This document shows, piece after piece, positions 13,801 to 38,910 of a stretch of DNA of 64,000 nucleotides. Position 1 is the first letter of the stretch, and each line of letters opens with the position of its first letter. Both the position numbers and the translations under genes were made by a program. This stretch comes from Marsupella aquatica (lineage: Eukaryota; Plantae; Marchantiophyta): the NCBI GenBank assembly GCA_973895155.1, contig OZ316895.1:18774508-18838507 (forward strand), read 5' to 3'. The notes under the pieces are model-generated. The model ran no database searches. It saw only the letters and a list, made by a program, of their open reading frames with translations, and had not been told where the DNA came from.

Positions 13801-15554
13801 AACATACAAAATTAAACCTCCTAGCTAATGTCGTTGAGATTGCCTATCACATCTTAACTGTCCGCCTCGCAGGCGCAGCTCGTACCTCTGGTCATCTTGC
13901 TCTGAGGTACTACTATCTGGCTCCGGCGCAACCTTGCTTCTTGTTGTTCTAGTGCTACGAGGTACCCTAGTGGAATGCCTCTCACCACTGCTCCTCCTCC
14001 TCTCTCTATCTCTCCGTCTTTCTCTGTCTCCCTCCTTGCATCTCTCCCTCCCTCGTCCTCCTTCAGGGAAAAGATCACGAGAAGTCCCACCATGCTGTCC
14101 GCATGGTACCGGGGCCTCCTCCTGGGTACCCTCCTCAAGCGGGACGGTGTCAGCATCCTCATCCTCTGCAATGGGTCGTGCTACTAAACCCTCTGGTGCA
14201 GTCCAATCCACTTGTATACAAGACACAGTTTCAGTCTAGGTTGGCACAAGATATGCTTTCACTCTACATCTATGGAATGGTGTTAATACAACGTAGCCAA
14301 GACATCACTACTTACTGGGAAGTCTTTGGGAGTTGAATCAAGCTTGCCCATAGGGCTGCCGGGCCATATCGCTTGGAGTACAAGTGCTCCTGCTCACTTG
14401 GGTCGGCATCTCGGCCATACTTTTGCTTCTGCAGCAAAAATCACATTACATCGTTCAAGAGGAGGTACTTTACACACCTCACCACTACGTTAAACCAATT
14501 GCGTCATCCCAAACGACGTTATAGATTACTCGATGGCACTAACATCGCAACAACAACGTGAGGGGTAGTGTAACGTTGTCTTGTGAGACGTAAAGGGTGA
14601 AATACAACAAGTTTAACGACGTTCTATTCTGCAATGGAGATGTTAATCTAAAAGAACGACGTTAGTTACTGTTTCACACCGAAGCAGCACCACAAGGCAT
14701 TGATTTGAATGATTGCGCAATGTGAAATGGAAGATAACTGACATAGGTTGCAAGAAATCCTCCCCATCCTCCCTGCCCCCAGAAATTTGTCACCTTCTTG
14801 CCACTCACTTTTTGAACAACATTGGCCTTGTCTCCCATACGCACTCGCTTTCCAACTGGGGTGTTCGGGGCTGCTTCGAGTTCACTGACAATCAATTTGA
14901 AGTCAGCTTCGCTCATGCCATCAGGTTTCTTATACTCCCCCGTCCTTATGCACCTGAGTTTGCGCACCTTTGCTCTCCACCTGAACCGTCGATCAGCGAG
15001 GTGATTCACAATCTTCTTCCTGATGTGGCGGTAGTCAATCTCTTGCCCATTTCTGAATCCAACCCACACATCATTTAGGAGCACCTGGAACTTCTTTTTG
15101 TTATGTACCAGCTCCTTCCAGGTCGTCCAATCGGGGCAGTGTTTAGTTACACAGGTCTGCACTATGTTTGTGAGTGCTTTCTCATCCAGAACGTCCGGCC
15201 TTGCATCAAAAGCAGCAAGGGTGATGGTGGGGAGGTGCTCCTTGCTGGCAGGAGCTTGTTGAGGATGTGATCGCCGCTCTGAATGTGAGTGCTCCTTTCT
15301 CCTCTCTGCTCCATGATGTCGATCTCCCCTGCGTCTCTTTGACCTTGATGTCTTTGCATTGTGCTCATTGGTTCCTTTCCCCTTTCGCCTTCTCCTTTCA
15401 GTGCTGCTATTTGACAAAGACCGAGATTGCCTCCTCCTCCTATGTGCTTGACGGTCCCCCCTCTCATCGTCTGCCCTGTATCTCTCATGTGCGATCCTCA
15501 CTTGACTCTTGATAGGGGTTTGAGCAGTTGCCTGAGAATCTAGCTGGATCTCAC

Positions 15555-18500
15555 TGTGATGCCTAGCCAGGAATCACTGGGCTAGTTTTAGGGGAAAAGG
15601 GAAGTGTACCCTAGAAACACCTTAGTATAGTTACATAAATAAGGAAAATATAAACAATTAAGGGTGACTATGGAACCCGAGCCGAGGCCGGAAGTAAGGA
15701 CGCCAGGGGAGAGAACACAATTAGGGTTAGGGCACGCTAAGTGTCGATGGCTAGGGGTAACCAACGGGAGGGAGAACCAGAGGAGGAGAGGGGTAAGGAC
15801 CGCTCGCGAGGCTCATTTGCAAACATGAACTGGGCAGGCGACTACGGGCGGCCAACTACTGTCAACTGCTTAGGCAAGCGCTCAGGGTGGGAACAAATAC
15901 CGACTATCAACTCGAGAAGGGTATGAGCAATGTCAATCAAGCGACACATTTTTGGGGATGCCTGTTCGAACAGGCAACTGAGTACATTGGGACTTACGAG
16001 GACGAAGAATCGGAGAGAGCAGCTCGAGAACGGCAGGAGCTCGCCCGATTGTGGGAGCTGCAGAAAGCTGCCTTCTTAGGAGGAGAACTCATCAAGGCTG
16101 AATTCCTGTGGACGCCTACTAGCAACGAGCTAGACGACCTGCTATTTTGCGAAGACAGAGTCGTTGGCATCCGCGAAGCCATTAAACGCTACAACGACAT
16201 ACACTGGGAGTTGAAGGGTAGCACGGAGGGGTGGACAAAGGCAACCGTGCTAGGAGAGACATCCACGGCAGCCGAGATGAAGAGGAAGGGGAACAACGAA
16301 GAGGCCACCTCGGCAAAAAGAACGAGGTTGGCGGCACCAAAGAAGCCAGCAAAAAAGGAGAGCAGGAGGCAGAGAGAAGCTGAGGAGGAGGAGGTCGACC
16401 CCATCAATGCCATTCCAACAAGAGATGACACCTGGAAAGGCTGGGCGGCGATTCTCCCCGAGGAAGTGCAATTACACTTTGCACGGGAGGAGGATGCATG
16501 CTTTACGGCTATGCAGACTCAGAAATACCAGGGCTTCATGGCCGGATCCGGCTTGGAAGTCTTCGTAAAGTTACCGTGGCTGAAGCCGGAGGTGCCGGAT
16601 TCAGACTTACTAGAATTTGTGGGATCATGAGAGTCCGAGACCAATTCCACAAGGTTGTATGGGAAGGATTTCTATCTCACTCCCGAGGTGATTGCCGAAG
16701 TGTTTGGCTTGCCGAAGGGCAATAAAACCAAGGTAGATACCAGGAAGACTTTGCCAGACAAGGAGTTCCGGTCGTTTCCCGGGCCTTCAACAAAGAATGG
16801 CTTCTTCCGAAACACCTGCACCAACCCGCATATAGGAGAGATGATCGATTTCTTGCGGGTGACCATGCATTGCAACTGGCCGAGACCAGAGATCTGCAAG
16901 GCACAGGTCTATCTGGCAGAGAGGCCAGACCCAAGCCGGGACTACAATGGTTACCTCCTCACTCAACTAAAGAAGATCTTGAAGGAGGAACAACTGGTGA
17001 TCGGCAAGGGAAGCGTGTCCCGGCTTGGCTATCACGTACCGCTATTATGCCGGTATGCCCGAAGTAAGACCTTTGCCCCGGTACTTCCCCTACAGGCAAG
17101 GGCACCAGAGGGAGGTTCCGGAACAGAGGCCGGCAACGGAGAAACCCAACCCGCCCGACAGTCCTACAATCGAGCAGGTGTTTAGGCCAAGGATGGAGGA
17201 CTTGCCGATGCAACAACCAGGCATGCAAAATCTGCTGAAATTGCTGGAGAAAGAAAAGAGAACGGCAACGGCAACGGCAACGGCACCAATGCAGGACACT
17301 GCTCCAGAGGTAGGCCTAAGCCGGCTTACAAGGGAAAACCCCTTTACTGGGGTCAAGGAGAGAAGGAGGCCGGAACACGAGCCGAGAGTCCGGATGTTTG
17401 TCGGAGCCTCAAGTCCCAAAGTCGAGGAGAAGCAGGCCGTAGCTCCCGGCCACGACAAGGAGAACAAAAGATCAACACGGAAGCCGGAGGAGGAACCAAG
17501 ACCGGTGAGAGGTGAAGCCGTGTTCACAACAAAACCAGGAGAACAGCGGGAGAAGCCGGTAGTCCAAGCCGAGGAGGAGGCGGTAGAGGACTACAGCAAT
17601 GATGACTCCGGCTACGGGTTGGATCATCATGTTCCAGGAGTAAGGACCTGTGGCCGGTTCATCCCCACGCTCCCAAGAGTAGTTGGAGGAGACCCGAGCC
17701 AGCAGAGCAGACCCGAGTCTCCCCCACCAGATGTCGCTCCCCCGAGCTTTGACGGCATAAAACAGACTGCGCAGGAATTTCAGGAGCAAATCAGGGAGGA
17801 AGAGGAGGCAGCCCTGGCTAGGGAAAAGGATTTACCAAGAGGAGAACGGCCAGAGGACATCAGGCGGCTTGCAGAAAAATGAAGCATCCCTCTAGCCACA
17901 ATAGAAGAGATCCGCAAGGCGGCTTGGGAACAAAGGCCGCGGTGGATGATGCCGATGACTTCTACTTCCTCCACCTATGCTAAAAATAGAGCCATGGAGT
18001 ACGGGGAAATGTGTGGAGAGCTGGCGCTCAACATCTTTGGGGAGGAGTTGGAGCAAGGACCCTTTTTTCAGAGGGAGATGTTGGAGAAGCGCCAATTAGA
18101 AGAAGCAATGGCTTTGGAAAGAAGCAAGAAGGACGAGGTCATCCGTCGGCTTAGGGCAAGGGAAGCCGAAATCAAAGACCTGAGGGCGGCCAAGAAAGCC
18201 CAGGATGAGCTACGGATTAAGCGGCATGAGCTAAATATCATGCAGGGCCAATTGGATATCGCATAGTCTGATAATCGGATTATCAAGAATAAACTGACTC
18301 GAACCCAAGGAGAGTTGGCCGATGCGATCAAGGAGCGGGAGAAGTGGAAGTGAGAGCTGAGGGATGCAGAGGAGGCCCACATAACAGCCAACAACCGGGC
18401 CATGGCGGAGACCCAGAGAAGGGAAAGGGCATTGAAGGGGGAGCTCGAGGTTATCCGCGGAGCCCTTGAGCAGAAGGAGGCCGAGTTAGGGAAATCCTAT

Positions 18501-20254
18501 CAAGGGATTATTGTGCTGCAGCAGGAGCTTGCGTCCCTGACGGCCAGCTTCAAAGCCGACCTACGTGAGAAGGACAATATGCTCGATCAGACTTACGCCA
18601 AGATGAACCAGATGGAGTCTGTCATCATTGCAGAGCTTGACAATGAGTTAAGAGCGACCCGGGAGGAGAGAGCTGCATTTAAAAAGGAATTGGAGGAAGC
18701 CCACAAGGAGCTGGAGGAGGCGTGCAAGGACCTGGACGAAGTGCAAGAAGAGTTGGAGGAAAGCACGCGGAAGCTAGAGAACTTACAACGACGAGCGGAC
18801 AACCAAACGGAGCGGTTGAAGAAACAAGCCGCAGTATTTAAGTGCTTGGCTTCATCAGGGCCAACTCAAATTGAGGCCACTAAGTTACCAGGAGTGGTAC
18901 TGGCCGAAGGACAAGCCGCGCCATTTGCACCAGTGCCGGAAGTAAGTGGGAAGGGGAAGGGGCCAGCTGCCGAACCAGAAAAGAAGAAGAAGCGGAAACC
19001 TTCAAGGTCAAGGACTAATACGGCTCCACAGGCCGTGGTGACCAAGGAGGTAGACCCAGCACCGACCTCAGGCAGGGTTACGGCAGAAGATCCAACTACC
19101 CTAGAAGAAGGGGATGACAAAGCCAAGGCCAGGATACTCGGTAATGAAGCCGAGGCTGAGGCCGTAGCCGAGGCTGATGTTGAAGCCGATGCCAATGCCG
19201 ATGTCGGGGGGGGACCCAGTCAGGCCGATGGAGAGTTGACTCAGTCAAGGGCAGGTAATCTGTCAGAGTACAAACCTACTGCAGTGGTTGAGGAGGAAGC
19301 GTTGGGGGCATCCACTGAGGAACAGACACCGCTGCCATGACGGTGGTGGAGGGCCGCTCCTTTCAAGGAGGGCGGACGTGGAGGGAGGAGGCGTGAGTGG
19401 GCAGGGTGGGCTCAGATCTCTAAGTTTAGGATTAGGATCAGGACCAGGAGGCGGCCCTGACACTTAGCTTAGTGGGATGGCGGTTCCACTGGTAAGAGAA
19501 ACACTTGTACTCCTGCCTCGCTGTACATAGGTAGATTTAGTTAGGTAGATTAGGCTTACGCTGCAAAGAATTAGGCGGATTCACTACCAGGATAAGTACC
19601 TAGGCAGCGGGGAGCTCAGGGCCTCTTCTTTAGCAAGTTTTTAGTTGCACCAGCCGGGCTGGGATCAAGTAGTAAGAGAAGCTCTCGTTTAGTCATACAA
19701 TGACCCTTGTGTATATTCATGTTTCCTCATGCCTAAGAGCTGAATAGAGTTGGCCTCACGGCTTAGTTCGCAGAGCTTGTGTATGAGATGTACTGTTTGT
19801 ATGGCAAGTGCATGGTATGACTCAGTCAGAAGGAGTCATTTTGCTATTTGTGTGTCGCATTAACTTGTGTGAAGAGTGCCCACATCAACTAATAGATGAA
19901 GGAAAGTAAGCAAGGGAGTGAGAGTTGGATGTGTCGAGCTGAGAGAGGTCTTAGCGGCTTAACCAAGCCTATTGGGGATCATTCCGGCGGCGGAATCCAA
20001 ATATACCTAACAAGAAGGAGGGGAAGACAGGGGAAGACAAGGGAAGGCCTAGATTAGGCCGGCTACGTATCTCATGACCCGATGAAGGATCTGTCCAGTA
20101 TATGTGTGTAAAATGTTAATAGTAGTAGTAGAAGGAGGTTAGCAGCGTCCCATGCCACTAAGCCGCGAAAACGGCCTCGCCAACCGCAAAACCTACGGGA
20201 ATCGGCTTGTGAAGGGGGGTTTCTGGGGTTTAGGGAGCCATGGGACGCACCACA
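15555..20254 (+). mobile_element. 4700-bp coding TG..CA element (solo-LTR-like)
   Basis: Starts TGTGATGCC and ends GCACCACA; 5-bp TSD CTCAC (15550-15554 / 20255-20259); no internal LTR pair and no gag/pol. Confidence 0.92.
15670..19340 (+). pseudogene. Decayed ~1100-1200 aa ORF: putative plant-transposon-protein-like domain, low-complexity linker and long coiled coil
   Basis: LLEFVGS*ESETNSTRLYGKDFYLTPEVIAEVFGLP resembles accessory ORFs of Athila/Tat retrotransposons; conserved in three copies; stops are mostly at W/Q/R codons. Confidence 0.6.
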
Positions 20255-21054
20255 CTCACAGAAGGTTGGATCGTCCCAACCATCGTCTGCTAGTGTTGGG
20301 AATGTAGGTAGCAGATCAATCAATGCCCCATCAAGCTCTCCAACGACATCTGGCGCTTCAACCTCAACCACCTCCTCTTGGTCGGGAGCATTGGCCTCAA
20401 TACTCTCTAGGTACTCTATAAACCTGGACTCCTTCGTTCCATGTCCTCCCATGAATTGCCAGCTATGGTTGAAGGCCTGGACTAGTGAATGTGTTGAATG
20501 TAGTGCTGTATGCACCTTCTCCATCTCCTCTGGATCCTCCATGGCCACCTTCACTGCATCAAAGTTCACACTGCATGGAAGGTAGCCTGGATGAGACATG
20601 GCGGGCAATTCTGTGAGGTAGAGGAGACCAAGAGCTGTGAGGATTAGAGGTGCATTGGGGAATGTCAAATGTGACTCGCATTTTAACACGACCCCAATGT
20701 TTTCTGAAGGAAATGACCGGGGAAACGCTTAACCTCGCGGGCTCGCCATTTCTTGCAATTTACATCGTTTTAATGTCTCTTTAACGTCATTTTAATGTCC
20801 TGTTTACGTCGCTTCCAAATGACGTTTCCTATGAACACCTTGTCCTAAACGACGTTAAGTTTAGGAACGTCATGCTGTAAGATGTAACCGACATCGGACA
20901 GGGTTTAAGCGGGACATTAAATGTTAGGGTTTTTTTTTAAATGATGTTAAAACTAATATTAGGTTGTAATTTGTAGGGTTTTAAGGATGGGTTTTTGTGA
21001 GGGGTTTTGTATAGGTTTTTCTCAAATGATAGATGGTTTTATTGGTTGCAGGAC

Positions 21055-21576
21055 ATGGTGATCTATGACTCTCTGTCCGATGACACAAATGATGGGGATA
21101 CAATTGTTGGTCGCAGATACCGGCATCATGATAGGGGTAGGGATTATTCTCCTGATAGTAGGAGGGACTACTCGCCAGAGCGGAGGAGGGACGACTCGCC
21201 GAGAAGGAGGAGGGACTACTCTTCAGAGAGGAGGAGGGACTACTCTTCGAAGAGGAGGAGGGACTACTCTTCGAAGAGGAGGTCGAGACATCGTAGATCT
21301 TGACGTCATCGCCATCGACAGAAGCAGGAGGATAGGAGAGATAGGAGCCCCCATCGGCCATATGACGTTCATCATCATCCAGAGCCCCATGGTCACAGCT
21401 CACCTTCCTCTTTGGACGAGGGGTGTGGAGAGGCCATGGTTGCTCTTCATGGGATTGGACAAGTCCGAAAGATGCCTTGCCCTTGTAGACGATGCAAGGG
21501 TGTTGTATCTCACGAGAGGACTACTGTCGTTAGCCATTTAGGGATGCATGGTTGTCATGTACCACCAATACCCGAG
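21055..21576 (+). CDS. CACTA transposase first coding exon: RRDYS repeats plus transposase-associated domain
   Basis: MPCPCRRCK...TVVSHLGMHG matches the CPC-x2-C...V-x2-HL-x3-G motif; donor GAG|GTGAG at 21576; one CGA>TGA stop at 21301. Confidence 0.8.
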
Positions 21577-21707
21577 GTGAGTTTCCTTCTTATTGCAAAA
21601 CCATTTTGCTTAACTTTAGCTATCACAAGGTTGGAGTACTTTGCCTTCAATCATGAATGCTCAAGTTTGCTGGCATGTTGAGATTTTCTTGCTTACATGT
21701 GGAACAG

Positions 21708-22444
21708 ATTCTGGTTGTGCCGTCACCTCCTAAGGACAGCATGAGAGAGGTTGCACGTCGAGCTCTGACTGCACTGGTGCCCCCATCAGCTCTAGATGCC
21801 ACTTTGAGGGCAATAGACCATGTTTTTGATAGGAGGAGGGTTTCACAGGTGCACCCTATTGAGAGGGGAGTCGTGGTCAATACCAGACCACGGTCTTTGG
21901 AGTCTCGTCCGCCTAGGGCGAGGCCACCACATTGTCCTTTTCTTGATGCATCTATTGCTCGGGCACCGAGAGAGTTGCATGGGAGAGCCTTGGACATTGT
22001 AAAGGACTCCTTCCCTACCCAATTTGGGCTCCCTGTGGACCTTCCAATTAGGGAGCCTATCATAGTTTGGGATCGCCCATGGGTCCTCCTCCCCTCCACA
22101 CTCCTCAGCTCTTTCCATTCTATGGGCCTAAGTATTTTGCTCAACGATGGCGAATCTTGTCTCGACAATGTCCGACCTTTGGTCGATATGGCATGTCGGT
22201 CAAGCTTGACCCTAGGTATGCTCAGATGGATGGTTACCCGCCGCGCATTGGAAACCTGGCGGGTTACATCAATAGCACATTGGGTTCTCGGCGTTCAGGT
22301 TTTAGGCCAAACACTGAGTGGCATGAGTACCATGACCAGACTCACCCTTGTTTGCCCATGGCTTGTACGCATTACATCTTGACCCATGCTACCCGCACCA
22401 TTAGAGCAGGGGAAGAGATTCTTGTAGATTATGATTGGCATTGA
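21708..22444 (+). pseudogene. SET-domain (lysine methyltransferase-like) exon inside the CACTA element; one frameshift near 22067
   Basis: QFGL...FPFYGPKY...MDG...GNLAGYINS...PNTEW...HATRTIRAGEEILVDY matches the SET consensus GN-x-ARFINHSC-x-PN...A-x-R-x-I-x2-GEEL-x-DY. Confidence 0.8.
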
Positions 22445-22558
22445 CGAAATGACATATTTGTAATTTATGGACCCATTGTTGCATAATACATTGTTGCGTT
22501 GTTTACTGCGTTTGATTATATATGACTTTGTATCAAATATTGGATTTTACAATTGTAG

Positions 22559-25500
22559 GATGGTGCATATGTTACTCCTACACCTCACCCATCCATGATG
22601 ACAATGTCAGCGCGTGCCTTTCACCTACGTGCCACTCTAAATTTTGATGATGATGAAGATGATGACTTGGAGCCTGATGATTTGGATAGTGACCATGAGG
22701 AGTACCATGATGCATATGATGGAGACTTTGATGAGGATGATGGAGATGAGGGGGATGCACCCATTCTTGAAGAGGATGCTTTTGCCCACCTTGTGGACGT
22801 TCACTTTGGACCACATGCACCTGAGGGCAAGAGGCCTACCATGGAAGTAGACCAGGATGATTGGGACCAGTTGGAAATGGAAGCCAGAACTCCACTCTTC
22901 TTGGATTCTCCATCATCACGGTAAGCTTCTTTTTTTCACAATATTTAATGAATTTAGGGTTTGATCCAGCCCAAGACTCTACTTATGAACTTGTACAGGC
23001 CACACCCAATGTCATACCTCAAACTAATTATCCCTGGTTTCACAAATGCAAGTTGGGTGCCACTTTGCTGATGTTGAATTTGCAGGGAGTTTTCAACACT
23101 TCAGACGTCCATATAGATGCACTCTTCCAGCTATTCCACCAAAAACTCTTGCCCCAACCAAACACTCTTCCTGGTTGTGTGAGGGAAGCTAAGAAGTTGT
23201 TAACCTCAATTGGATTGGCTTTAGAGACTATCCATATGTGTCCAAGTGGATGCATCCTGTACAGAGGGACATACTTGGGCCACACAGAGTGCCTAGAGGC
23301 ACAATGTAAGCTTCCACGATACCGGCCCGACACCATTGGCGAAAAAATTCCAGAGAAGGTGAGATAAGATCTCCTGCTATGATCGGAAGACATTTGTTAC
23401 AAAATTAACGTAGGAGTCCATAGAGTTACGTTTCAAAAAACGTTGTTTAAATTGTCTTGTGCGGCTTTTTCCTATTTAACGTCGTCTAGGTTAACGTAAC
23501 AGACTTTTACAATGTATATCAGGAGGTATCTTACGTATCATAGTATATAGGACGTACCTTACGTCTTACTAAAGGACGTAAAATTATTAACGTCATGTCT
23601 AACGAGGTTACTTTAAACCTGCCGACGTTAAGAACGTTGTCTAAATTTACCTCGTGTATCACAAGGTATTTAAGGTAACACGGTGATGTGTTTGACGTTA
23701 AATCTCAATTAACATCGGAGGGTTCGTTGTGATTGTGGTTTTTGCAGGTCTTTAGGTATTTCCCAATCACACCCCGACTACAGCATCTATATCGACGGAA
23801 ACATCTATCGGCACTCCAACTTGGCATGCTGAGAACAAGTCCCCACCAGGGATTATGCGGCATCACCACGACAGCCCAGCGTGGAAGCATATTGACACCA
23901 CTTGGCCTGATTTTTCTCTGGAGCCGCGGAATGTTCGATTGGGGTTGGCAATAGATGGGGTAAACCCATACAAGCAACGACGCAAGCCTAAGTCCATATG
24001 GCCAGTTCTCTTGATAAATCAAAATATCCCTCCATGGTTGGCGATGAAGAAAGGTCATGTTCTTCTCCTCACTATCATTCCTGGTCCTCAAGCCTGTAAG
24101 AATCTGGATATTTGTTTGGCTCCAGCTTATGAAGAATTGCAAAAGCTATGGGAGTTTGGGGCAGTGACCACAGATGTCACTCGTGCACCGGATAATGGGA
24201 GGACATTTCAGATGAGGGCGATGATCACCCATTGCACCACTGATGGTCCAAGTAATGCTTAGTCACTGAAAATTTTTGACATGCATTGTGTAGGGTCCTA
24301 TTGCATGGGTCAATGTTTATGGCCTGACAATTTTTTTCCATTCATTCACAGGTATGGCCACAATATCCGGGTTGAAGGTGGCTGGTTATTCTGCTTGCCC
24401 TTCATGTGGTCCCGAGTTGCATGGGAGATATTCTAACCACTTGCACAAAACCACATATGAGGGCAGTAGGGTTCAATTACCAATGGATGATATCTTGCGA
24501 CATAATATCACACATTGGGCTGAGACTGAGTTTAGGCCATGTCCCAATGGGCCCTCTAACTGAGGCCCAAATTCAGATGGCAGAGAAAGTGGAGGCAAAG
24601 TTACTTCAACCCAAGCACTGTGGTGTCAATAGGCGCTCAGCTTTGTGGGACTTGCCATATTGGAGGGTAAGTAAAATAAATTTACCTTCTTTTAAGTTAG
24701 TGACTTGTAGACTTATTCTCTTTATGAATTTCTTACTAACAAAACCTGATTCTCCACTCATTTTGCAGATCCTCCAGATAAGATGGTTGTTGGACCCCAT
24801 GCATATTGAAGTAAATGTCGCCAAGAACCTGGTGAAGCACATTTATGCATGAATGATACTCGTGGGGTCCGAGAGGATGCAAAGCAGGTTGGAGTGGTGA
24901 AGAGTTGTTGGATAACTCGAGATGGGGAGAAGCCACCTGCTCCTTGGGTTTTGCCAAGACAGATATTGAAGGAGATGAATGGGATGATATGTGAAATGGA
25001 GTTCCCTAGCCATTACGGAGCCAGCTTCCGTGGGTGCACTACAAGGGATGACCACATATCCCCAATAGGCTTGAAGTCTCACGATTATCACAAGTTGATT
25101 CAGCATGTGTTACCTGCTGTCTTGCGTTGTTGCGATGATTCTAGAGAGCGACGCCAACTCCGACATACAATGTATGAGTTGTGCTCCATTTTCAGGTGAG
25201 CATAGTCTTGTTGGCATATATTTATGCTATGATCATTGCATATGGTAATGGTAATGGTAATGGTAATGTATTATAAGCTCCGGGACCATGAAAGTCAAAG
25301 GAGCTGCCACAAAAAGTAAAGTACAATGCAATCAAAGAAAAGAGCAACCAAAAGAGATTGCTCAGAAGAGGACAACTATGTCCTCAAAGAAACTATGGAC
25401 CTAGAGAGCCCTGAAAGATTTTCCAAACCTATTCTCCTTTCCCTATCCACCGCAAAGATATATCTTCCAAGTTGTTGAGGGGGCAGACCAAACAATGCAT

Positions 25501-25708
25501 ACAAATCTTTCACCAAGATTTGATATGTTTATCATACTAATAATTTGACAAAATCTTGAGTACCCCATACAGGTGGGTATGCGCCAAGGAAATAAAGGAG
25601 AGTGAGATTCCCGAGATGAGGGAACGGTCTGCCCGTGTTATGTGCAATATGGAGAAGGTGTTTCCCCCATGTATTTTTGACATGCAGTTGCATTTGCTAT
25701 GTCATCTG
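22559..25708 (+). pseudogene. CACTA TnpD-like DDE transposase (Transposase_21 and DUF4218-like), multi-exon and decayed
   Basis: NTLP...AKK...IHMCPSGCILYR; DSPAWKHID...EPRNVRLGLAIDGVNP; WPVLLINQNIPP; LDPMHIEVNV; GLKSHDYH; FDMQLHLLCHL. Confidence 0.92.
25242..25523 (-). mobile_element. Short 5'-truncated LINE copy in a transposase intron
   Basis: (GTAATG)n tail and reverse-complement 3'UTR; ATATG on both sides (short TSD or microhomology). Confidence 0.93.
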
Positions 25709-26261
25709 GTTATGCTACCTCTGACATATAGGCTCACTATCGCCATTTGTATTGACTGTTGTCACTCCTGGCATATAAACACACATATTTCATGGCCTAG
25801 GCATCTGTGTATTTGGAGAGTGGGATGGGCTTGTGTTAATAACTTGGTAAAGAAACAAGTAACAACCATACATTTATGCACATGATCCCTCGGCCTTCTG
25901 CTACAAGGGATACCTGTCATTAACGTCGTCCTTGGAATTTTACGTCAATGCATAATTTTCTATGTTGTTTATAGCTATGCCTCCTCGACGTAACACGCTT
26001 CAACGTCATGTACCAAACCATTATCCGACGTTATAACTCTCTTTAACGTTGTCCTATACTTCGTAACAAGGAAAAAATGACGTACTTAACGATGTATGTC
26101 GCGACAAAATTATATTACCACGAGTATAACGACGTTAGCAATTTACATACGACGTTTCATTCAACGTAACAAATGCTTTTCTACGTCAATCACAAGAAAA
26201 AGATACAACATTCAAACCACACAATTTTTGTGACAAATAACATTCATGGATGTGTTTATTG

Positions 26262-26548
26262 CTCGGGGGGTTAACTAAGTGTATATTTTGGGGTACCACG
26301 TGCAATCCTAACGTAATATAAATAGACCTATTTTATAAATAAAATATTCCAAGAATATTCTCCATTTTCAATATTAATAACTTATTTTACTTTATAAAAA
26401 GTATATATTAGAGAATATTCTATAAACATAAGTTTATAATACCTTCTTTTGCCTCCTACGCTTTTTAAAAATTTAGTTAATTTCTAACAAAAATACCTAT
26501 TTTGGATCGCACGTGGTTCCTAAGATTTTTGATAGTCAACCCCCCGAG
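26262..26548. mobile_element. 287-bp MITE with 8-bp TSD
   Basis: Imperfect ~46-bp TIR CTCGGGGGGTTRACTA...ACCACGTGCRATCC; TSD GTTTATTG (26254-26261 / 26549-26556); AT-rich interior. Confidence 0.88.
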
Positions 26549-26641: not shown

Positions 26642-27290
26642 CTACAACCTCCCTCCAGACTGATGTTGATTAAGGAGTCCCTTCTCCAGACCAATAGTAC
26701 TCCTCGTCCGCTTTCCTCTTGTTGTACGAAGCACGCCTTTGGCTGGCATTCCAATTCTTCCGGACAACAGCTTCACCAGCCTGTAGCCTCTGAGTCTCCA
26801 CCTCGGCTGCACAACTTTCCTTGTAATCAAACATAGCAATCTGAAGTTCAGTGGGTGACAGCTCACATTTAGACAAGGTGGGAGGGTAGGCCTCACCATC
26901 ATCATCCTCGGGCGAATCTTCCAGACCACGATCACTGCTCGGATGCAACAAGAACTCTCCTGGGTCTAGCTGCTTGTTGGCAAGAATGGAGCACTCTACC
27001 CACCAAGTAGAGATTAAATGCAAGGTTTCAGCGAAATGCTCGATCAAGCCAGCATAGTCATTGAAGTGCTCCACAACCTGTTTCCATGTAAATCAAGAAA
27101 TTGGTCTGTGAGGTACATAGCTTGTCAACAAGCCCTCCACAACAAAAGAACCCTCGAACCATCTTCTCCTCCTCACCAAGTGGGAGGAAACAACAATGCA
27201 CATTTGCAAAGAACTTCCGCACCATAGCTGAACACTTTGCCTCCCACGGTTCAACTTCTCTACACTGAGGACCTTTGATGTCTTCACTCA
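26642..27290 (-). pseudogene. Third CACTA-borne ORF, unknown function (frameshifted)
   Basis: Coding-like composition (EHFNDYAGLIEHFAETLHLISTWW...) within the element, convergent with the transposase; no recognised motif. Confidence 0.4.
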
Positions 27291-28797
27291 GGAATGCTAG
27301 CTATAGTGAGCCTCCCGCGTATAGTTGAGTCTGTCCAATGCTGATATGTGGAATTAACGCCATTTTTCCCGATATACGTATGGTATTCTATGATGACGTA
27401 TCTGCAGATACGTCGTTCCAAACGCCTAAACTTACGGACGTCGTCCTATACATCGTTCTAATTTACGTCTTTAGGAAACAGGTAAGTTACCTTGTCTAGG
27501 AAGACATAATGTGACGTACAATGTATGATACAAGGTAACTTACCGTGTCTTAAAGGACGTAAACTTGTGATGCCTAGCCAGGAATCACTAGGCCAGTTAA
27601 GTGGGCAAACGGAGGTGTACCTTATAAACATATTAGTATAGTAACAAAAACAAGGAAAATATAAACAATTAAGGGTGACTATGGAACCCGGGCTGTGGCC
27701 GAAGGTAAGGACGCCGGGGGAGAGAACACGATTAGGGTTAGGGCACGCTAAGCATCGGTGGCTAGGGGTAACCAACGGGAGGAAAGACCAGAGGAGGAGA
27801 GGGGTAAGGACCGCTCACGAGGAATGGTGGCTCATTTGCAAGCACGAACTGAGCAGACGACTGCGGAAGGCCAACTACTCTCGGCTGCTTAGGCAAGCAC
27901 TCTGGGCGGGAGCAGATACCAATGATCGAGTCAAGGAGGGTATGAGCAACGTCAATCAAGCGGCACATTTTTGGGGATGCCTGTTCAAACGGGCAACTGA
28001 GTATATTGGGACTTACGAGGACGAAGAATCGGAGAGAGCAGCTCGAGAATGGCAGGAGCTCGCTCGACTATGGGAGCTGCAAAAGTCTGCCTTCTTAGGA
28101 GGAGAACTCATCAAGGCCGAGTTCTTGTGGACTCCTACTGCCAATCAGCTCGATGACCTTCTGTTTTGCGAAGACAGAATCATCGGCATTTGGGAAGCCA
28201 TCAACCGCTGCAACGATGCGCACTGGGAGTTGAAGGGTAGCACGGAGGGGTGGACAAAGGCAACTGTGCTAGGAGAAACATCCACGGCAGCCAAGATGAA
28301 GAGGAAAGAAAACAACAACGAAGAGGCCACCCCGGCAAAAAGAACAAGGGTCGGCGGCACCAAGGAAGCCAGCAGAGCAACAGAACGGGAGGCAGGGAGA
28401 AGCCGAAGAGGAGGAGGTTGATCCCATCAATGCCATTCCAACAAAGGATGACACCTGGAAAGGCTGGGCGGCGACCCTACCAGAGGAAGTGCAATTACAT
28501 TTTGCACGGGAGGAGGATGCATGCTTTACGGCCATGCAGACCAAGAAGTACCAGGGCTTCATGGCCGGATCCGGCTTGAAGCCTTCGTAAGATTACCATG
28601 GCTGAAGCCGATGGTGCCGGACTCAGACTTATTAGAATTCGTGGGATCATGGGAACCCGAGACCAATTCCATGAGGGTGTATGGGAAGGATTTCTATCTC
28701 ACTCCCCGGGTGATTGCCGATGGGTAATAAGACCAAGGTTGATACCAGGAAGACCTTACCTGACAAGGAGTTCCGGTCGTTTCCAGGACCATCAACG

Positions 28798-31700
28798 AAG
28801 AAGGTAGCAATTTCATTCTTCCAATCTCAGATGAAAGTGCATGACCCTATCATTTTGCAAGCATATAGGATTGGGCAAAAGAAGGGGGACCTTCCACGTC
28901 CAATCTTGGTGAAGTTTGCAGCTGAATCCGAGAAAGCTAGAGTGATGGCTAACAGGAGCATGCTTAAAGGGCTAAGGATTTGGTTGGATGATGATCTGAC
29001 TCCCACACAAGTCCAAGCAAGGAAAATTGAGCTTGAGAAGGTGAGGGTAGCCAAAGACCAAGGATTGGTAGCCTACTTGCGCAATGGACAAGCTGTTGTT
29101 ACCAATAAGAAGAGAGTTGTTTCTAAATGATGGATTGGGACCTTGAGAATCATGGCATGGAATGTTTCAGGACTTTCCATAGAAACAGCAATTGGAGGGG
29201 AACCTTTGTTTGAGAATTTTGACATCTTGCTTTTCACGGAGACTTGGGAATATGAGGGAAATGCTCTACCTAGCATTAAAGGCTTTACTTGCATACAATC
29301 CATCTTCAATGAGAAGAAGACCACACGGGGAAGAGGGTTTGGAGGCATTGCTGTCTACACCAAGAATCAACTTCAACACATCACCTCTATTGAACATGAA
29401 GATCCCAGCAAGCAGTTCATGGTGGTGAGACTTCATACCAGAGGTACTCCATCATTTCTGATTGTCACCTACTTTGCTCCCCTTAATATGAATGTCTATA
29501 AGATGGGAATTGCTGATGCACATTATCCATTTCATAGGTTAATCCAAGTCATTCATGATATATCACCACTAGGGGAGACATGGATAGTGGGGGACTTTAA
29601 TGCCAGGGTATCTAATGAACAATTTACTGAAAGTGAGGACTTAGGAACTTTACCTTGGTCATCATGTAGTGAAGAGATACCTTGGGTGAGAGAGGCTCTT
29701 GACACCAGAACAAATGACATGACACGTCACTTTTTGCATTTGGGAGCTTCTTGTAATCTAAGAATATTGAATGGGCTTGAGAGATTTCCCCAATCATCTG
29801 GTTACACTTTTAGATCTAAACAAGGATGTAGTACCATTGATTACCTTCTTGCCTCACCTACCTCTGCCACTAGAGTGGTTGACTTTCAAATACTTGATCA
29901 ACAACCAGAGTCTTCACACTTGCCTTTGTTGTTCCATCTTGACCTGACCACAATCCCAAACAAAGTGCATAGAAAGCCAGTACCCAAACCTCTGTTTCTA
30001 GACCCTGATAGAGAAGTCATCTTCAAAGCCAACTTTGAACATCTTCTCCATACCCTGGATGATCAGATTGAGCTCTCAGAAGTCATAGCACAAGCAGCAG
30101 CCTCTACTTTCTCCACCAAACCCCCTAGAAAGCAAAACATGAAGGCTTGGTTTGACGAGGATTGTGCTAGAGCAAGGATGCAAGCAAGATCACATTCAGG
30201 GGAAAAGAGACTTTTGGCATTCACTATGTACAAGAACTTCATCAAACACAAGAAGAGGTGCTTCTTGAAGAGTCATCAACAATCACTATGTGAGGAGTTC
30301 ATCAAACATCCAAAACGTTTTTGGGAGAGAATGCAATCAGGCAAGACTACTCCCCCCTTGGATCACCAGGACCTGGTAACCTATGTCACATCCTTGTATT
30401 TCTTTCCAGATGCTAGTGGCATGCCTTTGCCCCTTGGGGACACCATTCAGTTTACAGAGAGGGAGGTGAAGGTGCATCTTTCCCACATGCAACATGGGAA
30501 AGCTAAAGATCTGTTGGGCCTGAACTTGGAGCTTCTTTTGTGGGGAGGACCCTCTTTACTAACAAACTTGGTGCATGAGCTGAATCAAGCAATGGCTTTA
30601 GGTTTACCTAAAGCTTGGATGACCATAAGAGTGGTGCCTATCTTCAAGGCAGGCAACAAGGACGATGTGCACAACTACAGAACCATCATGGTAGGCAATA
30701 CTTTTGCTAAAGTTTTGGGAGGACTACTTGAAGCCAGATTAAGCTCTTGGTTGGAGAGTGAGATGAAAAGGGCACCTTCACAAGCAGGTTTTAGGAGAGA
30801 ATTCAGCACTATGGATCACATTCTCTGCTTGAGGGTGTTGTGTGAAAAAGCCAAATCTCCACATAAACCATTATTTTGCTTGTTTGTGGACTTCTCCAAG
30901 GCCTTTGACAAAGTTTCCCAATCCAAGCTTTGGGATAGGATGGTGGAGTTGGAAGTGCCTGAAGAGCTCAGGTTGGCTGTTTCTAAATTGTACCAAGAAG
31001 TGCGCATCAAACTTTCAAAGGAAACCTCTGAAGAAATCTGGAGCACTCTTGGGGTGATCCAAGGTTGTCCTCTCTCACCAACTCTCTTTGGCATCTTCAT
31101 TGATCAGCTACACAACATTTTGGAGGAGCATGGTGGAGTTGGCACTCAATTGGGTAGGTTTGTCCTCCAACTTCTTATATTTGCAGATGATGTGGTCCTA
31201 CTTGCTCATGCTCAAGAAGCTTTGCAAAGACATCTCAATGCCTTGGAGGAGTTTTGTCAAGCAACAGGGATGGTAGTCAACCTCAAGAAGACCAAGTGTT
31301 TGGGCATTGGCACACGACAAAATCCAGAGCTCTACTTCCAAGGGAATCTGGTGGAATTTGTGAGGACCTACAAATACCTTGGGGTGGAGTTCTCTCAAAA
31401 CTTGAGTTGGGCCTCATGTGTAAAATCTAGGGCTGCCAATGGGTACAGAGCTTTTTATGCATTCATGAACAAATGCAAAAGAGCTGGTTGGAGGTTAAGG
31501 AAACATCTCTTTGGAGCTTTGGTGAAACCAGTCATTCTTTATGGAGCACCAATTTGGGGAGCAGGTGTGTCTAAATCTGGGTGGCAACAGATTGAGGGGC
31601 TGCAAAAGCTATTTCTTGAGATGGAGCTTGGGATCAAGTCACAAACCCCACATGCACTTACACTTGCAGAGGCAGGCTTGTTTCCTTTGGAGGTGGAGGC

Positions 31701-32487
31701 ACTCTTCCACACACTCAAATACATCATGCGTGTAAGAGAGTTGGAGGAAAACAGATTTCCTTTTCATGTCTTGCGCTCATCTTCAGCTAAAGGGTGGTAT
31801 GCAGATGTGTGCAGGTGGGCCCATGCTTGGGATTTTCCTGAACATGAATGGCCAACACACCCAACCAAGCTAAGAGCAAAACTTGAGCAAAAGGCTTTGC
31901 ACAAACTTTGGCATGAACCTAGCCCACGGCAGCAATACTACATGAGAGATGTGAACCCCATGAAGAAATATCGAGAACAAGAATACTTATCTAGCACTAT
32001 CTCAGTACAACTTAGACAACTTATTGCTCAGTATAGACTAAGCTCACACCACCTTGAAGTAGAACAAGGGAGATGGAAGGATATTGACAGGAAAAAGAGG
32101 GTTTGTCAACTATGTGATAGCTCTAGTATAGAGAATGAATATCATGTATTCATTGCTTGCAAGTTTTATGAGGGGGTTAGGATGGTATCTCAAATCTTGG
32201 TGAAAGATTTGTATGCATTGTTTGGTCTGCCCCCTCAGCAACTTGGAAGATATATCTTTGCGGTGGATAGGGAAAGGAGAATAGGTTTGGAAAATCTTTC
32301 AGGGCTCTCTAGGTCCATAGGGCTCTCTAGGTCCATAGTTTCTTTGAGGACATAGTTGTCCTCTTCTGAGCAATCTCTTTTGGTTGCTCTTTTCTTTGAT
32401 TGCATTGTACTTTACTTTTTGTGGCAGCTCCTTTGACTTTCATGGTCCCGGAGCTTATAATACATTACCATTACCATTACCATTACC
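28798..32487 (+). mobile_element. Longest LINE copy (truncated within ORF1), RTEX-like two-ORF architecture
   Basis: AAGAA duplicated (28798-28802 / 32488-32492); CATTAC tail; excision restores host GPSTK|NGFFR. Clade assignment is an inference from ORF1, the C-terminal zinc finger and the microsatellite tail. Confidence 0.93.
29143..32355 (+). CDS. LINE ORF2: APE endonuclease, reverse transcriptase and C-terminal CCHC-like zinc finger (1070 aa, open)
   Basis: All APE motifs and LIFADD in one uninterrupted frame; 9-nt deletion relative to copy 3 (GLHTW>GW). Confidence 0.96.
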   Translation: MRIMAWNVSGLSIETAIGGEPLFENFDILLFTETWEYEGNALPSIKGFTCIQSIFNEKKTTRGRGFGGIAVYTKNQLQHITSIEHEDPSKQFMVVRLHTRGTPSFLIVTYFAPLNMNVYKMGIADAHYPFHRLIQVIHDISPLGETWIVGDFNARVSNEQFTESEDLGTLPWSSCSEEIPWVREALDTRTNDMTRHFLHLGASCNLRILNGLERFPQSSGYTFRSKQGCSTIDYLLASPTSATRVVDFQILDQQPESSHLPLLFHLDLTTIPNKVHRKPVPKPLFLDPDREVIFKANFEHLLHTLDDQIELSEVIAQAAASTFSTKPPRKQNMKAWFDEDCARARMQARSHSGEKRLLAFTMYKNFIKHKKRCFLKSHQQSLCEEFIKHPKRFWERMQSGKTTPPLDHQDLVTYVTSLYFFPDASGMPLPLGDTIQFTEREVKVHLSHMQHGKAKDLLGLNLELLLWGGPSLLTNLVHELNQAMALGLPKAWMTIRVVPIFKAGNKDDVHNYRTIMVGNTFAKVLGGLLEARLSSWLESEMKRAPSQAGFRREFSTMDHILCLRVLCEKAKSPHKPLFCLFVDFSKAFDKVSQSKLWDRMVELEVPEELRLAVSKLYQEVRIKLSKETSEEIWSTLGVIQGCPLSPTLFGIFIDQLHNILEEHGGVGTQLGRFVLQLLIFADDVVLLAHAQEALQRHLNALEEFCQATGMVVNLKKTKCLGIGTRQNPELYFQGNLVEFVRTYKYLGVEFSQNLSWASCVKSRAANGYRAFYAFMNKCKRAGWRLRKHLFGALVKPVILYGAPIWGAGVSKSGWQQIEGLQKLFLEMELGIKSQTPHALTLAEAGLFPLEVEALFHTLKYIMRVRELEENRFPFHVLRSSSAKGWYADVCRWAHAWDFPEHEWPTHPTKLRAKLEQKALHKLWHEPSPRQQYYMRDVNPMKKYREQEYLSSTISVQLRQLIAQYRLSSHHLEVEQGRWKDIDRKKRVCQLCDSSSIENEYHVFIACKFYEGVRMVSQILVKDLYALFGLPPQQLGRYIFAVDRERRIGLENLSGLSRSIGLSRSIVSLRT

Positions 32488-35400
32488 AAGAATGGCTTCT
32501 TTCGGAACACCTGCACCAACCCGCACATCGGAGAGATGATTGATTTCTTGCGGGTGACCATGCATTGTAACTTGCCGAGGGTAGAGATCGGCAAGGCTCA
32601 GGTCTACCTGGCAGAAAGGCCAGACCCAAGCCGGGATTACAATGGGTACCTCCTCAACCAACTGAAGAAGATCTTGAAGGAGGAACAGCAGGTGATCGGC
32701 GTGGGAAGCGTGTCCCGACTTGGCTATCACATGAAGCTGTTGTGCCGGTATGCCGGAAGTCAAATCTTTGCCCCAGTACTTCCCCTATCGATAAGGGCAC
32801 CGAAGGAGATTCTGGAGCAGAGGCCGGCAACAGAAGAGCCCAACCAGCCTGCCAGTCCTACGATCGAGCAGGTGTTTCGGCCAAGGAAAGAAGAATTGCC
32901 GATGCAGCAATCAGGCATGTAGAAACTGCTGAAATTGCTGGAGAAGGAGAGAACGGCACCGGCAACGGCACCGCCAACGGCAACGGCACCGGTACAGGAC
33001 ACTACCCCAGAGGCCGGCCTAAGCCGACTCAGGAGGGAAAACCCCTTTACCGGAGCCAACGAGAGAAGGAGGCCGGAACACAAGCCGGGAGTTTGAATGT
33101 ATGTGGGAGCCTCAAGCCCCGAATCGAAGGCAGAGCAGTCTAAGGCTCCTTCCCGCGGAAAGCAGGGGGAGAGGACAGCCTGGAAACCAAAGGAGGAACT
33201 AGAGCCCGTGATCTGTGAGGCCGTTTTCATGGCAGGACCAGGGGAACAGAGGGGGAAGCCGGGAGTCCAAGCAGTGGAGGAGGTGGTGGAGGACTATAGC
33301 AATGATAACTCCGGCTATGGGTCGGATCATCATGTTCCAGGAGTAAGGACCTGTGGCCGGTTTATCCCCACGCTTCCAAGAATAGTTTGAGGGGACCCCA
33401 ACTAGCAGAGTAGCCCCGAGTCTCCCCCACCAGAGGTTGCTCCCCCGAGCTTTGACGGCATAAAGCAGACGGCACAAGATTTTCAAGAGCGACTTAGGGA
33501 GGAAGAGAAAGCAGCCCTGGCTAGGGAGAAAGATTTATCAAGAGGAGATTGGTCGGAGGACATCAGGCGGCTTGCCAAAAAAAGAAGCAACCCTCTTGCC
33601 ACCGTAGAAGAAATCCGCAAGGCGGCTTGGGAACAGAGGCCGAGGTGGTTGATGCCGATGACTTCTACTTACTCCACCTATGCTAAAGATAGAGCCATGG
33701 AGTACGGGGAGATGTGTGGGGACCTGGCGCTCAGCATCTTTGGGGAGGAGTTGGAGCAGGGACCTTTCTTCCAGAGGGAGAGGTTGGAGAAGCACCGATT
33801 AGAAGAAGCGATGGCTTTGGAGAGAAGCAAGAAGGACAAGGTCATCCGGCGGCTTAGGGAGATGGAAGCCGAGGTGGAAGACCTGCAGGCGGCTAAGAAA
33901 GCCCAAGATGAGCTGCAGATTAAGCGGCATGAGCTAAACATCATGCAAGGACAATTGGATGCCGCTCAGTCTGGCAATCAGATTATCAAGGATAAACTGA
34001 CTCGGACCCAAGGAGAGTTGGCCAGTGTGGTCAAGGATAGGGAAAAGTGAAAGCAGGAGCTGAGGGACGCAGAGGAGGCCCACATAACCGCCAACAACCG
34101 GGCCATGGCGGAGACTCAGAGAAGGGAGAGGGCGTTGAAAGGAGAGTTGGAGGATATCCGCAGAGCCCTTGAGCAGAAGGAAGCCGAGTTAGGGAAATCC
34201 TATCAAGGGATTATTGCGCTGCAACAGGAGCTTGCGTCCCTGATAGCCAGCTTCAAGGTCAACCTGCGTGAGAAGGACGACCAGCTCGACCAGACTTATG
34301 CCAAGATGAATAAGATGGAGTCTAAGGTCGTAGCGGAGCTCGACAAGGAGCTAAGAGCAACCCAAGAGGAGAGGGCTACCTTAAAATTGGAATTGGAAGA
34401 AGCCAGAAAGGAGCTGTAGGAGGGACGGAAGGACCTGGAGGAAGCCCAGGAGGAGTTGGAGGAAACCACTAGGAAGATGGAGAACTTACAACGGCGGGCC
34501 GACAACCAAACGGAGCGGTTGAAGAAACAGGCCGCAGTATTTAAGTGCTTAGCTTCATCTGGTCCAACTCCAATTGTGGGAACTCCGTTACCAGGAGGGG
34601 TACTGGCCGAAAGACAAGCCGAGACACACGCCTCGGTGCCGGAGGTAGGTAGCAAGGGGAAGGGACCAGCTACCAAAACAGGGAAGAAGAAGAAGCGGAA
34701 ACCTTCTGGGTCTGGGAGTTATACGGCTTACCAAGCCATTGTGACCCAGGAGGTCAACCCGACACCAACCTTCGGCATGATTACGGCAGTAGATCCACCT
34801 GTTGAAGAAGGTGGGGATGACAAGGTCAAGGCCGGAACAGCTATTGATGAAGCCGAGGTACCGGATCCTCCACTAGAACATGTCGGGGAGGCCGAAGCCG
34901 TATCGAGGGCCGTGACCGATGCTGGGGCCGAAGCCGAGGGTGGACCCAGTCAAGCTGATGAAGAGTTGACTCGGTCCGAGGCAGGTAATCTGTCAGAGGA
35001 CGGACCGACGGCAGTGGCTGCGGGGGAAGCGTTGGGGGCATCCATTGAGGATCCGCCACCGGTGTCGTGACGGTGCAAAGGCGCCGTTCCTTTTAGGAAG
35101 GGCGGACGTGGAGGTAGGAGGCGTGAGTGGGCAGGGCGGGCTCAGATCTCCAAGTTTAGGATTAGGATCAAGACCAGGAGACGGCCCTGACACTTAGATT
35201 AGTGGGATGGCGGATCCACTGGTAGGAGCAACACTTGTGCTCTTGCCTCGCTGTACAGTTAGGTAGATTACAGGTAGGATAGATTAAGCTTACCCAATGA
35301 AGTTCTGGACAGATCCGCTGCCAGGATAAATACCTGGGCAGCGGGGAGTCAAGGGTCTCTTCTTTAACAAGTTTTTAGTTGCACCAGCAGGGCTGGGATC

Positions 35401-36810
35401 AAGTAGTAAGAGAAGCTCTCGGTTAGTTATACAATGACCCTTGTGTATATTCATGTTTCCTCATGCCTAAGAACTGAATAGAGTTGGCCTCACGGCTTAG
35501 TTTGCAGAGCTTGTGTATGAGATGTATTGTTTGTATGGCAAGTACATGGTATAACTCAGTCAGAAGGAGTCATTTTGCTATTTGTGTGTCGCATTAACTT
35601 GTGTGAAGAGTGCCCACATCATAAAGGGAAGTAACAAAGGAGTGAGAGTTGGATGTGTCGAGCTGAGAGAGGTCTTAGCGGCTTAACCAAGCCAATTGGG
35701 GATCATTCCGGCGGCGGAATCCAAACATACCTAATGGAAGACCAGGAGAGGAATACCAGGGAAGGCCTAGAATAGGCCGACTAAGTATCTCATGACCCAA
35801 TGAAGGATCTGTCCAGTATATGTGTGTAAAATGTTAATAGTAGTAGAAGGAAGGTTAGCAGCGTCCCATGCCGCTAAGCCGCGAAAACGGCCTCGCCGAG
35901 GACGAAACCTGCGGGAATCGGCTTGGGCAAGGGGGTTTTCTTGGGTTTGGGGAGCCATGGGACGCACCACAAAACTTAACGTCATGACAATCGACGTTAT
36001 CTGATCCCGTTGAATCTCTGGACGACATCCCACAACAGTCCAGAGATTTACGACGTATAGTCCAACGTTAATGGAAGGAGCTTCTTCTTGGGTTAGGTTC
36101 AACCTGGTCCCGAAATGCAAAAATGTAGTTGTGCTTGGTCCAAGCCGAAGTGTGACCCTTCAACTCCCACACCGGCTGTCCAGCATTCTTAATCGCCTCC
36201 CAAATTCCAATAACTTGATTCTCTCTGATCAGCAACTCGTCAAGCTCGGCACTGGTGGGAATCCATACAAATTTCTCAAGTACCTCCTCCATTCCCACAA
36301 ACGTCGTCTTATGAATTCCCCATAATTGCGCAAGCTCTGCCCGTTCCCTTGCTGCTCGTTCTGGCTCGACGTCTTCGTAAGTTGGTATGAGCTGTCGTGC
36401 TTCTTCAAGCAAACAGCCCCAAAACTTGGCCGCTTGATTCACCGTGGTCATTCCACCGAAAGAAAAAGGAGCCTGAACAATTCCCTAACCACCTCCCTTG
36501 ATCGATCAGCAGCTGCTTCCGCCTCCCTAAGTTGATCGAACAAGCAAATGAGCAAGTGTACAGAGTGTCGGTCCCCTCCCTGCAAAGCCGCCTCCTGATG
36601 GCTTGCCTGATCAAACCCGGATTAGGTCATAACCCTAATCCCGCTCAATCGCGACCATTGGATCTTACCTTATCGCAATCCTCCTCATAACACATTGCAA
36701 TCGGCTTTGGTCTTTATTCCTACCTTATACTATTTAGCCATTATTTTTATTTAGCCATTATTTTAGGCTTAACTAAGTACTTTGTGATCCTGGCAAGGCA
36801 TCACACCAAG

Positions 36811-38230: not shown

Positions 38231-38910
38231 TAGTCATAGACATTCTTCAATGACTCTACAATTATGACCAGTGTCCGTAATGATTGTACAATATTTTAAT
38301 CATTGATATATCCAGGATGCTTCAATGACTCTATAAGTAGTTATTTATGAAACAGTATATATCCTGATTTTTAGATTGACTCTACAAGTAGTCATTTATG
38401 AAACAAGTCCATAATGACTGTATGTTGCTATAAACACTGATATATCCTAATTCTTAGATTGACACTGGATTTAGTCATTTATGAGACAAGTTTGTAATGA
38501 CTGTATGTTATTGTAAACATTGATATCTATTGATTTTTTTATTGACCATAGCTTTAGTCATTTAGCACCGTCAGTTAAAATGACCAAAATAGGTTTTTGG
38601 TCATTTCAATCATTGTCCAAAATGACTACAATGGTGCAAAACACTGATTTATCATTGTTTTGATAGTTTATGTCATTTAAGACATTTGTCTAAATTGACC
38701 ATTTTAAGAAAATTGTGTCATTTTGGTCATATCAGTCATTACCGACATTTTACAAAATGACGCAAAATTGATCATTTTGTCATTTCAGTCTATTGGTCAT
38801 TTTGGACAATCATTCTCTGGTCATTCATTTTGTGTCATTGATGATTTAGGTCATTTATGCATTTCAGTCATTGGCCGGTTGGTCATAAAGGGCCATGTTC
38901 TCTTCTAGTG
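38230..38910. mobile_element. Right end of a canonical CACTA element with dense AATGAC/GTCATT subterminal repeats
   Basis: Ends ...TCTTCTAGTG (reverse complement CACTAGAAGA) at 38910 after many GTCATT motifs; abuts MULE-A transposase coding sequence; left end not found in the window. Confidence 0.7.

Follow-up and report, generated by a model that had tools for sequence, protein, structure and literature searches.

The known anti-silencing factors of plant transposons, such as VANC and TnpA, are DNA-binding proteins. In Arabidopsis Spm3, alternative splicing yields both the transposase and the anti-silencing TnpA, which lowers methylation of its own family, according to a passage in a preprint (bioRxiv 10.64898/2026.08.24.746577). 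Passages in two further sources report SET-domain cargo, known from annotation, in other DNA transposons: in HarbingerS and MuDR of Phytophthora (PMC12730594), in Helitrons, and in the red-algal Plavaka (EnSpm/CACTA superfamily), whose accessory gene PAG2 carries a SET domain and is proposed to modulate transcription (the latter two in the Bostrychia preprint, bioRxiv 10.1101/2025.02.11.637652). Here we describe a CACTA/EnSpm element from the liverwort Marsupella aquatica, found within a 64,000-nucleotide stretch (assembly GCA_973895155.1, contig OZ316895.1, positions 18,774,508 to 18,838,507; hereafter the window), in which a SET exon lies inside the transposase gene.

The window holds a decayed copy of a CACTA/EnSpm family whose transposase gene harbors a conserved SET exon within its first coding intron. 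The copy resembles Plavaka PAG2 in placing a SET domain on a DNA transposon of the EnSpm superfamily. PAG2 (compared by description only), however, is a separate gene with the SET fused to an N6-adenine DNA methylase, whereas here the SET exon sits inside a tnp2-type plant CACTA transposase gene, in frame with a zinc-motif exon and with no DNA methylase. HarbingerS, MuDR, and Helitrons likewise carry SET lysine methyltransferase cargo on a DNA transposon but belong to other superfamilies and other hosts, and the passage on HarbingerS describes its SET as an accessory gene, with no mention of shared transposase exons. With En/Spm TnpA/TnpD and Spm3 the likeness is that one CACTA gene would give a transposase and a regulator through alternative splicing; TnpA is a transposase-derived DNA-binding protein, whereas alternative splicing here would deliver a captured enzyme domain, and the element also has a separate divergent second gene. 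Our literature search, with Repbase and supplements outside its scope, found no SET exon in land-plant CACTA elements, and the passages of PMC11982613 do not mention one. SET cargo itself is known; what is new is the land-plant host group, the placement within an intron of the transposase gene, with an N-terminus in common, and a SET subfamily that lacks the canonical His.

The gene is read on the plus strand. Its N-terminal coding exon (21055–21576), which both products would share, opens with an ATG at 21055, encodes Ser/Arg/Asp-rich repeats followed by a CxCxxC...H zinc motif (CPCxxC...H in this copy), and ends in phase 0 with GAG (21574–21576), followed by the donor GT at 21577; coordinates and frame agree with the exon end given in the initial annotation. 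The two downstream phase-0 acceptors proposed there are likewise present. The first, CAG at 21705–21707 followed by ATT at 21708, leads into the frame of the N-terminal half of the SET domain and would close a 131-nt intron (21577–21707, GT...CAG). The SET exon that follows (21708–22444, 737 nt, GC-rich) is terminal and ends, as had been annotated, at a TGA stop codon (22442–22444). The second acceptor, TAG at 22556–22558 followed by GAT at 22559, enters the transposase exon in phase 0 and ends a non-coding stretch (22445–22558) that would form the 3′ part of a 982-nt intron (21577–22558) skipping the SET exon. Because the GC content of the two stretches between exons is 0.38 and 0.29, compared to 0.52 in both the zinc-motif and the SET exon, they look like introns.

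The window copy itself is dead, a pseudogene that could make neither a zinc-motif-SET protein nor a transposase. The earlier suggestion that this one locus yields either product therefore holds as far as layout and phases go but fails for this copy. The SET exon had been credited with one frameshift; comparison with sister contigs, which have 78 letters at 22100/22103 against 2 in the window, reveals a 76-bp deletion that takes out SET motif I and shifts the frame. At this frame change homologs have approximately 25 residues, including a GxGLF motif I. Nor is it the only lesion, since an in-frame TGA (21301–21303) lies upstream of the zinc motif, the transposase frame breaks near 23817, 24557, and 24846, and the transposase exons that relatives carry 3′ of position 25708 were found nowhere in the 64-kb window. 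The copy thus lacks the complete open transposase of an autonomous element.

The exon encodes a genuine SET domain, as established by a profile match in the window and by the fold of an intact relative. Positions 22052–22441 match Pfam SET (PF00856) with 23.7 bits (cut-off 22.4, E = 6.8e-5), and the domain called in the initial annotation is upheld by this match. We built a structure model on the intact relative P0013 (predicted local distance difference test score, pLDDT, 85.7), and its structural matches were to SET domains only: SET8 (best, Z = 12.7, root-mean-square deviation 2.2 over 122 residues), SET7/9, MLL/Set1, EZH2, and Legionella LegAS4, at Z-scores of 11.6–12.7 and 14–23% sequence identity. 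Sequence comparison with solved structures yielded no more than weak SET matches (E = 0.07–1). These minimal SET proteins share with the element's domain the fold, motif I, the GxE of motif IV, and the terminal Tyr, but have Asn-His where the element has Asn-Ser, and the post-SET cysteines are absent here. In this structural comparison the element SET fits no single SET subfamily, and none stands out. Giant-virus SET clusters come next by structure and language-model features, leads only, which hint at a possible giant-virus origin of the element SET.

Relatives of the exon were recovered at both the protein and the DNA level. Protein searches gave 12, 36 of 40 (after three LRR proteins and one FG-GAP protein were dropped), 42, and 2 SET relatives; the named hits are all from liverworts, Calypogeia fissa (2) and Riccia sorocarpa (12). 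The C-terminal half of the window's SET domain is 70% identical to one relative protein and groups with a Calypogeia protein (support 95/85) in a SET tree of 40 rows, from which four others had been excluded because the motif cut failed. This tree has two deep clades, with Calypogeia in both. Scanning with a degenerate motif returned 14 metagenome loci and no viral stretch, and locus scans with protein alignments found nothing. Exons of tnp2 type lie 3′ of the SET exon on the same strand in 10 of the 14 loci; the other four end too early. The near-clade locus L007 repeats the layout of the window, with a zinc motif, GAG|GT, CAG|ATG into SET, a stop codon, and CAG|GGA into an acidic exon, all in phase 0; its zinc-motif exon is open, as is that of a second locus, L013. 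The other 13 loci are copies of one far-clade family, also in phase 0: the donor is GTG|GT in all six copies that cover it, the SET acceptor is TAG|GG in six of eight (TAA in two), and the SET stop is followed by the transposase acceptor TAG|AAT in 11 of 12. These two other families, 41–59% identical over the C-terminal half of the SET domain, thus keep the same donor, acceptors, and stop, and the DNA layout in all three families (window, L007, and the 13-copy family) is compatible with two mRNAs from one transcription unit.

The SET exon belongs to the element and has been kept across divergent families under purifying selection. Between the window and L007, the C-terminal half of the SET domain (107 codons) has 0.34 nonsynonymous (dN) and ∼2.8 synonymous (dS) substitutions per site, with identities of 70/75/41% at the three codon positions. 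This dN is comparable to that of the transposase exons (0.48–0.63 against L003, dS saturated); as dS is near or at saturation throughout, dN/dS ratios are rough. NG86 values against the distant family (dN 0.65, dS 1.3) are not informative. Among the 40 best-supported of 202 variants, 10 of 19 are synonymous in the SET exon and one of eight in the zinc-motif exon, counts of little weight in that the variant rows mix private decay with subfamily differences. The initial annotation had listed three grounds for refutation, and two of them were checked here: the lack of a SET match, and the absence or neutral evolution of the exon in other family copies. Neither check refuted it.

This conservation bears directly on the idea that the element picked up the exon as a piece of a host gene and carries it as a functionless passenger of the Pack-CACTA type. 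CACTA elements do capture gene fragments, and the window copy is broken. Nevertheless, 99 of 104 proteins form one family with invariant residues over 30–70% identity, dN lies far below dS, and the position of the exon is fixed across deep clades. The passenger explanation is thus largely refuted, and we regard it as highly improbable.

Sister contigs show that conservation extends to the splice acceptors. Their likeness to the window ends at 21584, 8 nt into the first intron, and returns at 21679–21695, 12–29 nt before the SET acceptor; it ends again at the SET stop (22444) and returns at 22554–22556, at the second acceptor. Both acceptors have thus been kept while the intron bodies changed. 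In a sister subfamily the intron at 21577–21707 is replaced by unlike sequence, yet both of its splice ends are still alike.

Zinc motifs of the Transpos_assoc type usually stand at the N-terminus of the transposase, and Pfam names the motif transposase-associated. Given that the zinc-motif exon belongs to the transposase, a full transposase needs the 982-nt intron that skips the SET exon. No in-phase donor follows the terminal Tyr of the SET domain in any of the three families. The simplest reading is therefore a choice of 3′ splice site, because the acceptor of the SET exon is conserved and in frame, and the exon closes with a stop codon and offers no in-phase donor: in intact copies the zinc-motif exon would be joined either to the SET exon, giving a short protein of approximately 445 residues that terminates there, or directly to the DDE transposase exons farther downstream. 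That the SET product is spliced from the zinc-motif exon seems to us probable from the DNA layout. The product is a predicted lysine methyltransferase, and its N-terminus, shared with the transposase, would direct it to the DNA of the element itself or to the transposase complex, a targeting role that we assume for the zinc motif. There it would most likely methylate histones, such that the element stays transcribed and mobile, and so would act as an enzymatic counterpart of TnpA or VANC. We rate action on the element's own chromatin, to the element's benefit, at an even chance or slightly above, and the reading as a whole, in which a predicted active methyltransferase works on the chromatin of its own element, at a little short of even. 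A bolder version is speculative and in our view rather doubtful, namely an old bryophyte CACTA lineage with a chromatin writer built into its transposase gene, where a splice choice sets the cutting enzyme against a histone lysine methyltransferase of the His-less SET subfamily, which uses the transposase zinc module to mark the copies and to oppose Polycomb- or H3K9-based silencing. A liverwort transposon family that encodes its own SET, linked to the transposase through such a putative splice switch, would offer a test of whether a transposon writes histone marks on itself, and its SET, active or inactive, would add a subfamily that lacks the canonical His.

Several observations weigh against this reading, and the foremost concerns catalysis. 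The His of the canonical motif III, RFINHxCxPN, occurs in none of the 97 aligned proteins (Ser in 93, Asn in 4), making the YINS noted initially in place of FINHS a family trait. A passage in PMC12633793 calls this His required for catalysis, and its replacement in all 97 rows is hence our main doubt. The family also has no post-SET cysteines and has its own insertions in the core. Taken together, these features would suit a zinc-motif-SET isoform that is made but serves as a pseudo-enzyme or binding module, that is, a decoy or adaptor at histone tails, S-adenosylmethionine (SAM), or silencing factors, or one that methylates a non-histone target such as the transposase; we hold this alternative to be unlikely, though it deserves some weight. 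Set against it is the retention of key motif residues (counts from 104 proteins, near-duplicate cluster members included, 99 of which match the SET family profile). The motif I GxG, deleted in the window but present in sister copies, keeps its first Gly in 83 of 87 rows and its second in 86; the motif III Asn is kept in 93 of 97 proteins; and motif IV, GxELxxxY, keeps its Gly in 89 and its Glu in 90 of 92 and its terminal Tyr in 90 of 90. Moreover, PRDM9 is active with Asn-Cys at the place of the motif III His (our literature searches gave no such passage), and SET7/9, SET8, and viral vSET work without a post-SET zinc. We lean towards a SET product that is predicted to be catalytically active. 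As SET8, Set1/MLL, EZH2, ASH1L, and SET7/9 are tied within 1 Z as matches to the P0013 model, neither the substrate nor the activating or silencing sense of the mark can be read from structure.

Further points concern the breadth of the comparison and the zinc motif. The 14 metagenome loci amount to only two families, as the 13 far-clade copies are near-identical (∼84–95% DNA identity to L005) and only L007 is of the near clade. Although L007 and the 13-copy family sit on opposite sides of the deepest split in the SET tree, the window, L007, and the far family are three families related by descent rather than 15 independent cases, and their phases are inherited. The zinc motif scores 16–24 bits against Transpos_assoc (PF13963) in all three families (21.4 in the window), below the cut-off of 27.7, and gave no match in the eight Riccia models scanned.

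The evidence for both splice forms consists of DNA and gene models. Among the joints listed for four runs (contigs, unknown library type), we found no GT-AG join of 21576 to 21708 or to 22559, a result uninformative on expression. Among contig-derived proteins none has a clear zinc motif joined to SET; the match in P0016 looks like intron read-through. We also noted that nine contig-called SET homologs (P0003, P0004, P0010, P0016, P0026, P0038, P0056, P0090, and P0095) begin with a hydrophobic, intron-like segment ending in Gln. The position of this Gln, just before the presumed SET exon, fits a phase-0 CAG acceptor, as judged by eye and without a control.

The gene models of Riccia sorocarpa point in two directions. 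Seven of the 12 connect a Cys/His motif with SET and terminate after it, and four of the 12 run from SET on into transposase. Neither form counts as proof, because the Riccia annotation combines ab initio and cDNA evidence, according to a passage in PMC11735767. The second form would make SET an internal exon of one long zinc-SET-DDE transposase, with a donor just before the stop, so that the transposase itself would carry the methyltransferase. Three of these models (P0074, P0081, and P0099) indeed share one exit point from SET, located past the terminal Tyr, and P0044 is also fused. However, the interval from the terminal Tyr to the stop holds no GT in the window, the GTs that it holds in L007 and in the 13-copy family do not match the phase of the acceptor that follows, and gene finders, on which the Riccia annotation partly depends, tend to chain exons. 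A search for long fused forms gave only two matches, both Riccia gene models. We consider a single long fusion improbable.

The 3′ splice-site choice must also be weighed against a reading in which SET is an accessory gene in its own right, lying within the transposase intron and starting there, like the SET genes of HarbingerS and Plavaka PAG2; the agreement in phase would then be a coincidence. The SET acceptor is followed by a Met after 0 codons in L007, 3 in the 13-copy family, and 11 in the window, which makes a stand-alone SET gene possible, and many genes resembling TnpA are transcribed independently of the transposase, according to a passage in bioRxiv 10.64898/2026.08.24.746577. This arrangement would nevertheless leave just 110–155 nt of intron upstream of SET. 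In addition, the acceptor is conserved together with the preceding 12–29 nt while the intron body diverges, each of the three families has its nearest donor in frame, and the Met is absent in some homologs (P0004, P0016). A nested gene therefore strikes us as quite unlikely.

Downstream of the second acceptor, the transposase is of the tnp2-type DDE class, with matches to Transposase_21 (PF02992, 137 bits) and DUF4218 (34.5 bits), both above the Pfam cut-offs. Its acidic first exon (22559–22920; boundaries inferred from GT-AG) has a similar counterpart in L007 and is followed by an exon with a Cys-rich motif (22999–23358, boundaries likewise inferred), the tnp2 core (23748–24251, containing the frame break near 23817), the second part of tnp2 (24352–24666, break near 24557), a further exon (24769–25195, break near 24846), and the last exon in the window (25573–25708), which holds the first 45 positions of DUF4218. 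Downstream of this cut-off transposase, a frame-broken, coding-like stretch on the minus strand (26670–27300) is covered by sister contigs and has no Pfam match; near the 3′ end of L005 there is likewise a frame on the minus strand, not clearly similar to it.

CACTA termini have the form 5′-CACTA...TAGTG-3′, as given in a passage of PMC4158355. We found no terminal repeats in the window copy, and other insertions occupy its flanks. L005 is a whole 9.9-kb element, which runs from 5681, where it starts CACTACAACA (a 5′ end shared by L013), to 15573. The 3′ end of L005 is degenerate, differing from the 5′ end at two of 10 bases, one of them within the terminal five; if it is accepted, ACA flanks the element on both sides, as the 3-bp target-site duplication of a CACTA element would; no such duplication could be located in the window. 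The divergent second gene (14677–20620, minus strand) is split in the window by a 4.7-kb insertion (15555–20254) with TG...CA ends and a 5-bp duplication, CTCAC. Three of the 14 loci (L002, L005, and L013) have a homolog ∼2 kb upstream of SET, on the other strand; the window gene is 30% identical to its relatives over 91 residues (E = 7e-8), and no Pfam family matched it. ACGT-rich non-coding tracts recur in the introns and spacers of the element (13170–13480, 20760–20930, 23400–23700, 25900–26200, and 27340–27565) and are possible candidate binding sites for an element-encoded protein.

Other repeats have accumulated in and around the element. The TG...CA insertion in the second gene has a relative at 27566–35971, ∼84–86% identical, and each is inserted in or beside the CACTA copy; both contain Gag-like and coiled-coil frames, and neither has a Pfam match to a reverse transcriptase. 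On the minus strand, a third relative, now decayed, lies at ∼10860–13165, and there is another from ∼36080. A young long interspersed nuclear element (LINE; 28795–32488) encodes an endonuclease and a reverse transcriptase, with an open frame of 1,074 residues (29131–32355), and copies or fragments ∼99% identical lie near 83–941, 4024–4943, 8338–10845, 40716–41273, and 56177–57160. A 285-nt LINE 3′ fragment ending in short tandem repeats occupies a transposase intron (25243–25527). At 26263–26548 there is a high-copy insertion of ∼290 nt with inverted ends, resembling a miniature inverted-repeat transposable element and missing from some sister contigs. Finally, a tandem array of ∼12 copies of a 43-nt unit lies at 54258–54849, and diverged repeats with a period of ∼570 nt are found at 36709–38235 and, 31 kb away, at 5576–6304.

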